Counted from the first letter of the stretch, positions 9,760-58,972 are shown. The stretch is DNA of 64,000 nt from Bacteroidota bacterium (GCA_039798665.1 JBDKFO010000002.1:3990-67989); one strand, 5' to 3'. Numbers and translations: made by a program. The notes: generated by a model from the letters alone, not told the origin.

Positions 9760-9872
9760 CTGCTTAATAAAAGCGCAAAACTAAATAAAACCTCTACGAG
9801 TTGAATGATATAACAAAAAGCTTTTTGAGTAAAAGTGCTTCACTCACCTTGTTTTTTGGGTTCTATTTCTAT

Positions 9873-10147
9873 AAAAAAGCCCAAATAAATGTTTGAGCTC
9901 GTGGTGCGGGTAATAGCCCCGAAGTATCGGGGGAACCTCACGCTTTGCGGTATAAAAAAAGCCCAAACTAAGTTTGAGCTAAAGAGGTGCGGGTAATAGC
10001 CCCGAAGTATCGGGGGAACCTCACGTTTTGCGGCATAAAAAAAGCCCAAACTAAGTTTGAGCTCGTGGTGCGGGTAATAGCCCCGAAGTGTCGGGGGAAC
10101 CTCACGCTTTGCGGTATAAAAAAAGCCCAAACAAATGTTTGAGCTCG
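9873..10147 (-). repeat. Tandem array (~82-bp period) of degenerate tRNA-Leu 3' halves plus terminator hairpins
   Basis: ggtgcgggtaatag recurs at 9903, 9986, 10067 and in the tRNA itself at 10149 (periods 83, 81, 82). Each unit carries ccccga(t/c)acttcgggg and an agcccaaa...tttgagct hairpin with a T-run. Confidence 0.9.
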
Positions 10148-10232
10148 TGGTGCGGGTAATAGGACTCGAACCTACACGCCTTGCGGCACCAGATCCTAAG
10201 TCTGGCATGTCTACCAATTTCACCATACCCGC
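10148..10232 (-). tRNA. tRNA-Leu(TAG)
   Basis: GCGGGTATGGTGAAATTGGTAGACATGCCAGACTTAGGATCTGGTGCCGCAAGGCGTGTAGGTTCGAGTCCTATTACCCGCACCA: acceptor stem GCGGGTA/TACCCGC, anticodon loop CTTAGGA, long variable arm, TTCGA T-loop, encoded CCA. Confidence 0.97.
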
Positions 10233-10246
10233 GTGAATTGTGGCTG

Positions 10247-10254
10247 CAAATATA
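10247..10254 (-). promoter_or_regulatory. Bacteroidota -7 promoter element (TATATTTG) for tRNA-Leu
   Basis: Matches TAnnTTTG 14 nt upstream of the tRNA 5' end. Confidence 0.7.
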
Positions 10255-10514
10255 GATTTATTTTTTGAATGGCAAAAGGGTAATTAAAAAGTTGTCGGCT
10301 CAGAAGATTTAAAGATTGAATAATTTAAAGATTGAATAATTTAGACTTGAAGGCACAGCTTCGTTCCGGAGTTTTGATCCCCAAGCGTAGGGATTGGAAT
10401 TTCAAAATTTGGAATTTCTATTCTGTGCATTCGTGGCTAAAAGCTAAAAGCTGACAGCTGATCGCCCACAATTATTCATTATTAATTCATCATCATTAAT
10501 TTACGAAGAAAAAC

Positions 10515-54555: not shown

Positions 54556-54571
54556 TCCCGACACTTCGGGA
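54556..54571. repeat. CCGAYACWTCGG-core palindrome
   Basis: tcccgacacttcggga; same core as the palindrome in the tRNA-Leu repeats and ttccgatacatcggaa at 58927-58942. Confidence 0.65.
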
Positions 54572-58875: not shown

Positions 58876-58972
58876 TTGTTTTGAAACTCCAATAATCAAA
58901 ATACAAGTTCCACTAGTGAATTTTGGTTCCGATACATCGGAATGGGATTTGTAATTTTAAAATTTATAAGCG

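Follow-up and report, generated by a model that had tools for sequence, protein, structure and literature searches.

How does a transfer RNA (tRNA) gene come to be followed by several altered copies of its own 3' part? The question is raised by a stretch of 64,000 nucleotides (nt) from a Bacteroidota bacterium (the window), in which the functional tRNA-Leu(TAG) gene, on the minus strand, is followed by an array of three units that repeat its variable arm, T-arm and acceptor 3' strand. Alignment with the real gene reveals that in all three units the T-loop bases GAGTC (5 nt) have been swapped for a 16-nt palindrome. The host genome, which comprises 2.31 Mb in 30 contigs and is 99% complete, has only this one Leu-TAG gene among its 32 tRNA genes. 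The array is probably a member, devoid of open reading frames (ORFs) and orphaned of its nuclease, of a Bacteroidota-wide family of tRNA-linked nuclease/hairpin repeats. Sequence comparison establishes its membership in a family of hairpin-patched tRNA-linked repeats and shows that in many relatives the same module is physically coupled to a minimal GIY-YIG gene. In addition, the array is an orphan in its own genome, and genomes that carry Leu-TAG arrays are rich in dispersed palindromes.

The first-pass annotation, made from the sequence, had described a tRNA-Leu gene followed by three tandem copies of its 3' part with a palindrome in the T-loop. ARAGORN, Rfam and TRF all agree with this description, the sequence strings reported are correct, and the proposed amplification in tandem is borne out by three head-to-tail units. 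The real tRNA tail reads ...GTAGGTTC-GAGTC-CTATTACCCGCACCA, and the corresponding part of a unit reads (A/G)CCGCAAA(G/A)CGTG-AGGTTC-CCCCGA(C/T)ACTTCGGGG-CTATTACCCGCACC. Each unit begins with AT(A/G), continues with the variable-arm copy CCGCAAA(G/A)CGTG, AGGTTC and the hairpin CCCCGA-(C/T)ACT-TCGGGG, and passes through CTATTACCCGCAC, which comprises the T-stem 3' strand and the acceptor 3' strand, and a short trailer into a terminator composed of AGCTCAAAC-N3-4-(G/A)TTTGGGC and a T-run. The tandem period is 83 bp, with 3.5 copies and 91% matches over 9873-10162 (TRF), and the pairwise identity among the three units is 88–94%; in unit 3, the terminator stem is weakened by a change of GTTT to ATTT. 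Across the window, the array palindrome has three exact matches and one with two mismatches, 0.02 being expected. Four terminator-like sites were found, as compared with 1.1 expected.

As the spare copies have neither a 5' half nor a T-loop, they are unable to make tRNA. No promoter and no credible ORF were found inside the units when the array was searched; a 128-aa ORF spanning it (9840-10226) is spurious, being a read-through of tRNA sequence. An Rfam scan of the array (E up to 10) gave the tRNA alone above threshold and listed no RtT match, and in scans of four other hairpin-bearing regions only tRNA matches exceeded the threshold. Within its own genome, the unit is unique to the tRNA-Leu(TAG) locus. 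The CCA encoded in the units is not conserved among those of sister species, and hence carries no evidential weight.

Hairpin-patched tRNA tails and the small GIY-YIG gene

A public scan with the family query GGTTCCCCCGANNNTTCGGGG (GGTTC plus hairpin) listed at least 160 matches at at least 119 loci, almost all of them in Flavobacteriaceae, Chitinophagaceae and other Bacteroidota. Among the 160 matches listed, to which the following counts refer, 94 have a tRNA gene on the same strand less than 1.5 kb upstream, and what follows the hairpin repeats the 3' end of that gene. Whether the unit occurs at other tRNAs had been an early question about this locus: at least 15 isoacceptors carry such tails, including Phe (34), Leu-TAG (10), Val-TAC (9) and Met (8). 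The tails are often in tandem, neighbouring matches being spaced by 47–175 bp where no ORF is present and by 366–383 bp where there is one, and the base after the hairpin is C in 151 of 160. When one genome per genus was taken from 151 genera of the bacterial family, 31 matches were found in 13 genomes and none with the reversed control; the outer pair of the hairpin was C-G in 25, T-A in 5, T-G in 1 and C-A in none. The GGTTC+hairpin motif was absent from 2.9 million viral contigs.

Operationally, the family is defined by a repeat, downstream and on the same strand, of the parent tRNA's T-stem, GGTTC and acceptor 3' strand, by replacement of GANTC with YCCCGA-N4-TCGGGR followed by C, and, in complete units, by a ~93-aa GIY-YIG gene that ends 3–17 nt before GGTTC. 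The first feature is present at tRNA-Leu(TAG) and the second in all three units, and the third is lacking in this genome. The loss of the T-loop is uniform, in that 88 spare copies in the retrieved loci have the hairpin, 12 are decayed or nested, and none has an intact T-loop. When the T-loop of tRNA-Leu(TAG) was searched without bias for inserts of 9–30 nt across 401 genomes of the genus, real palindromes were found in six, one of them the genome studied here. The palindromes include the T-A variants TCCCGAAACTTCGGGA and TCCCGAAGGATCGGGA and one nested hairpin; the other matches resemble the reversed-pattern background. In 24 further species of the genus and 16 of the order, tRNA-Leu(TAG) is present and the array absent.

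The 3' ends of tRNA genes are classical att sites, and it had been suggested at first that the units might be scars of serial integration. On this view (att accretion, CIME-like), islands or phages with an integrase would repeatedly have entered at the tRNA 3' end by site-specific recombination and been lost again. Such scars, like the units, are direct repeats of the 3' part of a tRNA downstream of an intact gene; moreover, att-type partial copies of tRNA-Leu occur in two relatives (G006, at 9.6 kb, and G001), and at locus L040 an integrase adjoins the 3' end of tRNA-Phe. However, att scars keep the T-loop, lie kilobases away and are accompanied by an integrase, whereas here the T-loop is overwritten in every unit, as in the 88 hairpin-bearing spare copies against none intact, and the three units have identical boundaries that each include a terminator. 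No recombinase or island cargo was found between or beside the units, the neighbouring genes are housekeeping genes, and the motif occurs in none of the viral contigs. It had been noted correctly that the window holds no integrase: PF00589 has no match on the contig (C2), and the genome's four tyrosine recombinases are all on other contigs. Serial integration is thus very improbable as the source of the array. A classical att-type island scar is represented by the 34-nt copy of the tRNA-Leu 3' end at G006:C10:172355-172388, which has an intact T-loop and lies 9.6 kb from the tRNA (181987-182070). In the genome under study, tRNA-Ser(TGA) on contig C19 has an integrase at a distance of 1 kb.

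An ORF of ~93 aa stops 3–17 nt before GGTTC in 36 of the 160 matches listed, the other 124 being ORF-less, so that GIY-YIG genes, one of the two kinds of enzyme first proposed to accompany the palindrome, do abut the hairpin. The protein consists of a single GIY-YIG domain (PF01541, E 5.5e-12), and its nearest solved structures are UPF0213 proteins, with a weak match (E 0.005). In ORF-bearing units, the duplicated block starts with the T-stem, takes in the trailer and ends with the local terminator, and the gene, lying between the copies, is too close to the terminator to have a promoter of its own. A strong match to the T-type nuclease was detected in 5 of 12 hairpin-positive and 0 of 36 hairpin-negative genomes (p = 0.0005); it lies within ~35 nt of the hairpin in four of the five, and in G426 the ORF begins ~220 nt downstream of the hairpin. 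The nuclease was not found in the genome studied here (G000), nor in the likewise small genomes G189, G246 and G184, which also have Leu-TAG arrays. The other enzyme proposed at first, a Y1/RAYT transposase (PF01797), has no match in this 99%-complete genome, which speaks against it as the palindrome's enzyme. The array is an orphan, since its genome has neither a T-type nuclease nor a Y1/RAYT transposase and its contig lacks an integrase.

These data are consistent with the following course of events. In its complete form, the family comprises a ~93-aa GIY-YIG gene just 3' of a tRNA gene and its terminator, and then a second copy of the tRNA's T-arm, acceptor 3' strand, trailer and terminator, in which GANTC is always replaced by YCCCGA-N4-TCGGGR to give an oriented module of GGTTC, hairpin and C. 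The duplicated tail and terminator would act as direct repeats, between which unequal recombination may add, remove and homogenise units and may leave some without the gene. The units would accordingly be derivatives or by-products of nuclease cassettes; in this genome three gene-less units would have remained, the cognate nuclease having been lost or never resident. Transcription of the units presumably occurs solely by terminator read-through, and today they are most likely passengers, whose obvious by-product is four intrinsic terminators in series.

Three other origins were considered and rejected. An acceptor/T-arm minihelix is not supported, as the apparent 5' strand at L054 is a copy of the variable loop and T-stem rather than of the acceptor strand. 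Retro-copying of a terminated transcript is ruled out by arrays L054 and L033, which include units without terminators, and tandem duplication with the hairpin at the junction by the fact that the spare copy includes what lies on either side of the T-loop.

By analogy, the family is at present best modelled biochemically on the Ssn enzymes (Chenal et al. 2025, PMC11893778), single-domain GIY-YIG nucleases of 94 aa that are accompanied by NTS/SRM hairpin repeats. They bind the oriented hairpin repeat only as single-stranded DNA (ssDNA) and cut a few bases upstream; in the NTS, binding depends critically on the C after the palindrome, and the sequence of the loop is not constrained (PMC11893778). 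Ssn systems and gene-bearing relatives of the array have a single-domain GIY-YIG protein of ~93–94 aa, encoded by a gene flanked by an oriented hairpin repeat that is also dispersed in the genome, and in both the stem sequence is conserved, the loop is free, the bases upstream are conserved (here GGTTC) and a C follows the palindrome. In contrast, the module of the present family lies inside a spare tRNA T-arm, tRNA being without mention in PMC11893778, its units are tandem and carry terminators, and its protein has UPF0213 proteins as nearest, weakly matching structures. A single-domain ~94-aa GIY-YIG gene flanked on its 3' side by the hairpin repeat is found in relatives, whereas the genome studied here has the repeats and no nuclease. 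By analogy with Ssn, GGTTC+hairpin+C would be the recognition site of the nuclease, and overwriting of the T-loop may be the element's mark on the spare copy, or its protection. It is conceivable, albeit doubtful, that an Ssn-like ssDNA nuclease and this module form a new structure-guided selfish element. Such an element would overwrite the loops of DNA stem-loops (T-loop, D-loop and the loop of its own hairpin), exchanging ~5 nt for the 16-nt palindrome, and would survive by duplicating the tail of a host tRNA gene.

Several related arrangements were observed. At L027 (an Aggregatimonas chromosome) and L113, there are tandem full-length pseudo-tRNA-Val and pseudo-tRNA-Phe copies with insertions in the D-loop and T-loop, next to an intact real gene. 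Outside the window, at G000:C6:18550-18760, tRNA-Gly(TCC) and its terminator are followed by one spare copy of T-stem, acceptor, trailer and terminator, which starts with ATA after the T-run and in which the T-loop bases TTCGA are replaced by AAGTTAA-TCCCGATTCTTCGGGA-A, of the T-A sub-type. A mirror-image element, also outside the window (G000:C6:51624-52009; L163 ~625-1009), consists of a pseudo 5' half of tRNA-Arg(TCG) with a 20-nt hairpin in its D-loop (GGCTGCGTAGTTCAACTGGATA[CCTGTCTGCCGACAGGCAGG]GAATATCAGATTTCG), an 82-aa UPF0213-like GIY-YIG ORF that runs from the anticodon-loop copy and is the genome's only small GIY-YIG gene, and then the intact tRNA-Arg. In two other species of the genus, small GIY-YIG ORFs occur in tandem, six at G013:C25:34490-36501 and three at G048:C15:199426-200464, with a spacing of ~358–390 bp; these clusters are presumably gene-bearing tRNA-linked arrays.

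Dispersed palindromes and their sub-types

The palindrome had been thought to be dispersed in the genome, and this is supported by the count of CCCGA-N4-TCGGG sites, which is 51 against 0.65 expected, with two thirds outside long ORFs. The identity of the dispersed element is another matter, since the outer pair is T-A (TCCCGA...TCGGGA) in 47 of the 48 sites outside the array and T-T in one, while the array hairpins have C-G (CCCCGA...TCGGGG). Because of this difference, the dispersed copies are regarded as a related sub-type and not as the array's element. In 29 of the 48, a G-T wobble on one strand forms the seventh pair, so the dispersed palindrome has an orientation. The copies are mostly intergenic and lie inside low-complexity runs such as GATTTTTG or GATTGAAA. 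Two further sites in the window had been linked with the array: the free core reported at 54557 does exist, with two mismatches and of the T-A sub-type, and the variant at 58927 is an intergenic palindrome, but a weaker look-alike whose relation to the family is uncertain.

The palindrome count is 40–59 in all six genomes with a Leu-TAG array, compared with a median of 6 for 34 others of the genus (Mann-Whitney p = 2e-4), although the array genomes are possibly close relatives, in which case the statistics overstate their independence. None of the enzymes tested, namely the UPF0213-like GIY-YIG protein and the T-type nuclease, is tied to the palindrome load.

Palindromes also occur in places other than T-loops. 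At L080 and G232 (L147 ~760-800), one hairpin is nested in the loop of another within a spare T-arm (GGTTC-TCCCGA-TCCCGAAGTTTCGGGA-CGGGA), which suggests that the palindrome may go into the loops of stem-loops in general. Hairpins are likewise present in D-loops at L113 and L027 and in a terminator at L040.

It has to be considered that the tail and terminator were first duplicated locally and that the copies were colonised later by a loop-seeking, REP/MITE-like palindrome, with the GIY-YIG gene as a non-causal occupant of the same niche. This would account for the fact that the array genomes are exactly the palindrome-rich ones, for the nested hairpins and those in D-loops and terminators, for 48 dispersed copies in a genome without a T-type nuclease, and for the 124 ORF-less units among the 160 listed. 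If colonisation had come later, however, some spare copies with a native T-loop would be expected, and their absence among 100 partial copies is the main weakness of this alternative. Moreover, hairpins in the GGTTC context are mostly C-G and the dispersed copies T-A, and a strong T-type nuclease is found in hairpin-positive genomes only, mostly beside the hairpin. Duplication before colonisation is a live alternative, albeit an unlikely one.

History of the array in sister species

Flavobacterium sp. records with the same promoter, tRNA and terminator type have one unit (L035/G246) or two (L018; G189). The -7 box TATATTTG, which we take to be of the Bacteroidota-type -7 promoter consensus TAnnTTTG, is kept at the sister loci L018, L035, L144 and L165. 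Synteny with the window, at 84–86% nucleotide identity, was found in three metagenome contigs; two of them have three 83-bp units, and the third ends inside the array. The copy number, whose variation in relatives had been a point to check, thus ranges from one to three among sister species. The exact downstream flank of the array had no match in metagenome contigs.

An assembly artefact in a short-read metagenome-assembled genome could in principle create tandem copies, and this genome is in 30 contigs; nonetheless, such an origin is extremely improbable here, because the units differ from each other at several positions and independent assemblies agree. The array is only ~290 bp long, the three-unit structure is found in two independent metagenome assemblies of one sister species, and like arrays are present on finished chromosomes (L027/G440, a single contig) and in a nanopore bin (L051).

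Across all aligned units, no variation is seen in the T-stem/GGTTC, in either stem of the hairpin, in the acceptor strand or in the stems of the terminator. Concerted evolution is evident in four other parts, which vary between genomes but are uniform within arrays: the loops of the hairpin (YACT, CGCT, AACT) and of the terminator, the trailer, and the spacer of 5 nt that follows AT(A/G). One unit type, ATGGGATAA, is shared by the distal unit of G189 (L144 unit 2) and the sole unit of L035, and another, ATGAAAT(A/T)A, by the proximal unit of G189 (L144 unit 1) and L018. As these types are common to different species, the array is older than the species, and units have since been gained and lost. 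Comparison of the sequences thus establishes that the Leu-TAG array was already present in the ancestor of a small Flavobacterium clade and was passed on with turnover of its copy number. The spacers in L144 and L035 read ATG-NNN-TAA, a remnant to be expected from deletion of an internal ORF, and this may be taken as only a hint. Recombination at hairpins is indicated by G189, where a different repeat, itself with hairpins, is fused to the second hairpin of the array. This other repeat is also present in the genome studied here, in three copies (C1:254021-254061, C4:173890-173930, C20:15075-15187), each of which holds two or three palindromes (...GGTCCCGAAGCTTCGGGATCTCCTTTTTGTCCCGACGCTTCGGGACGCCTGCCAAATCCTATGGTCG...), and it matches no Rfam family.

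The invariance of the stems raises the possibility that the host keeps the array: four terminators might insulate the porin gene downstream from a strong tRNA promoter, read-through RNA might be processed into small RNAs with CCA-like ends, or the units might act as decoys for enzymes that bind tRNA or for integrases that target it. In favour of this, all four terminators are intact, stems are kept and loops and linkers vary across species of ~85% identity that have no nuclease, and the array region folds far better than shuffled sequence (z = -7). Furthermore, read-through of tRNA-linked repeats (TLRs) in E. coli yields the RrA/B/F RNAs, which bind Hfq and CsrA (PMC8144298). Against this stand the presence of the array at tRNA-Leu(TAG) in just 6 of 401 genomes of the genus, a copy number of one to three among sister species, the one-sided decay of stems in some other arrays, the lack of a promoter in the units and the unconserved CCA; tRNA-derived parts, in addition, can be conserved through gene conversion by the real gene. 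A host function, be it through the stacked terminators or the processing decoys first suggested, is possible but improbable.

Returning to the explanation of the array as a nuclease-orphaned family member, several findings weigh against it in addition to the possible relatedness of the array genomes. Seven of the 12 hairpin-positive genomes have no T-type nuclease, and no ORF-bearing unit was found at tRNA-Leu(TAG) itself, so that descent of the Leu-TAG units from a gene-bearing unit is inferred. All 48 dispersed copies differ from the array hairpins in their outer pair; the relation of palindrome load to the T-type nuclease is weak (p = 0.07), and the small UPF0213-like GIY-YIG protein has no association with it. 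Species that have no nuclease still show perfect stems and intact terminators, which could reflect host selection instead of a relic. Finally, the SRM motif HGTCWY..RNCYNB has no match in the genome or the array, against five for the reversed control; since this motif is unmatched and tRNA is absent from the Ssn paper, the family is said to work like Ssn, and membership is not claimed.

Comparable systems and the layout of the locus

The comparison with E. coli tyrT made at the outset is apt. The E. coli TLRs (tyrT/rtT; Egan & Landy 1978, Rudd 1999), reviewed in PMC8144298, immediately follow a tRNA (or rRNA) gene and terminate with a repeat of its 3' end, as do the units described here; they are often tandem, are reached by terminator read-through, and are likewise unexplained in function and origin. 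Yet they repeat 18–19 bp of the 3' end, in contrast to ~43 nt including the T-arm here, they have neither a T-loop hairpin nor a nuclease gene, and the Rfam scan listed no RtT match for the present units.

With REP/REPIN sequences, the palindrome shares its short GC-rich form, mainly intergenic position, orientation and tens of copies per genome. It differs in that this genome has no Y1/RAYT gene, that its copies do not form inverted pairs as REPINs typically do, and that GIY-YIG is the only enzyme seen beside the palindrome.

Phage T4 provides another case of a small GIY-YIG gene lodged among or beside tRNA genes: SegB is encoded by a small free-standing gene in the phage tRNA cluster and cleaves the tRNA-gene DNA of competitors. 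To our knowledge, SegB has a DNA-binding extension and makes no hairpin-patched spare copies, and, in contrast to that phage setting, the module described here is in 0 of the 2.9 million viral contigs.

In the literature searched, neither hairpin-patched tRNA tails nor GIY-YIG cassettes lodged at tRNA genes were found to have been described, and the family of tRNA-linked GIY-YIG/hairpin cassettes is apparently undescribed. TLRs of E. coli have been known for more than 40 years (since 1978), their origin being unexplained, and the characterisation of Ssn nucleases and their hairpin repeats dates only from 2025 and does not involve tRNA genes; the present locus and its relatives connect tRNA-linked repeats with single-domain GIY-YIG nucleases. 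What the window itself adds is an orphan array traced across sister species, a tie between arrays and the genome-wide palindrome load, and the distinction of C-G and T-A sub-types. If the nuclease recognises the module, the two would make a defined substrate-enzyme pair for ssDNA tools, a mechanism for genome instability associated with tRNA genes, and an annotation rule for many 'pseudo-tRNA' fragments of Bacteroidota. Should the selfish-element proposal be true, it would offer a general origin for tRNA-linked repeats, and orphan arrays would be fossils of nuclease activity or sinks for horizontally arriving nucleases. For the window alone, the finding is a modest one, a non-coding relic with four stacked terminators.

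Table 1. Positions in the window of the tRNA-Leu(TAG) gene, the parts of the array and two palindromes elsewhere
Feature	Position	Strand	Details
-7 promoter box TATATTTG (TAnnTTTG)	10247-10254	minus	5' of tRNA-Leu; read from sequence
tRNA-Leu(TAG), functional	10148-10232	minus	ARAGORN; Rfam tRNA 58.2 bits; normal T-loop GGTTCGAGTCC
Terminator T0, AGCTCAAAC-ATTT-GTTTGGGC + T7	10118-10145	minus	directly 3' of tRNA-Leu
Unit 1, 81 bp	10037-10117	minus	ATA, pseudo 3' end 10067-10115, terminator 10037-10063
Unit 1 hairpin CCCCGACACTTCGGGG	10081-10096	minus	
Unit 2, 83 bp	9954-10036	minus	ATG, pseudo 3' end 9986-10034, trailer CCTCTTTA, terminator 9954-9980
Unit 2 hairpin CCCCGATACTTCGGGG	10000-10015	minus	
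Unit 3, 81 bp	9873-9953	minus	ATA, pseudo 3' end 9903-9951, terminator 9873-9899
Unit 3 hairpin	9917-9932	minus	
Free copy of dispersed type TCCCGACACTTCGGGA, then half copy CTTCGGGA	54556-54571	plus	intergenic
Palindrome look-alike TTCCGATACATCGGAA	58927-58942		intergenic; one pair short of family core

The genes around the array, a porin (downstream), a PfkB kinase, an amidotransferase and a superoxide dismutase, are of the housekeeping kind. On the 5' side of the tRNA (10304-10452), there are short tandem repeats, ATTTAAAGATTGAATA in 2.3 copies and GCTAAAA in 2.4, and the minus strand bears, at about 10382-10395, a decayed look-alike of the palindrome, CCCTACGCTTGGGG; this low-complexity context is the same as that around the dispersed palindromes.

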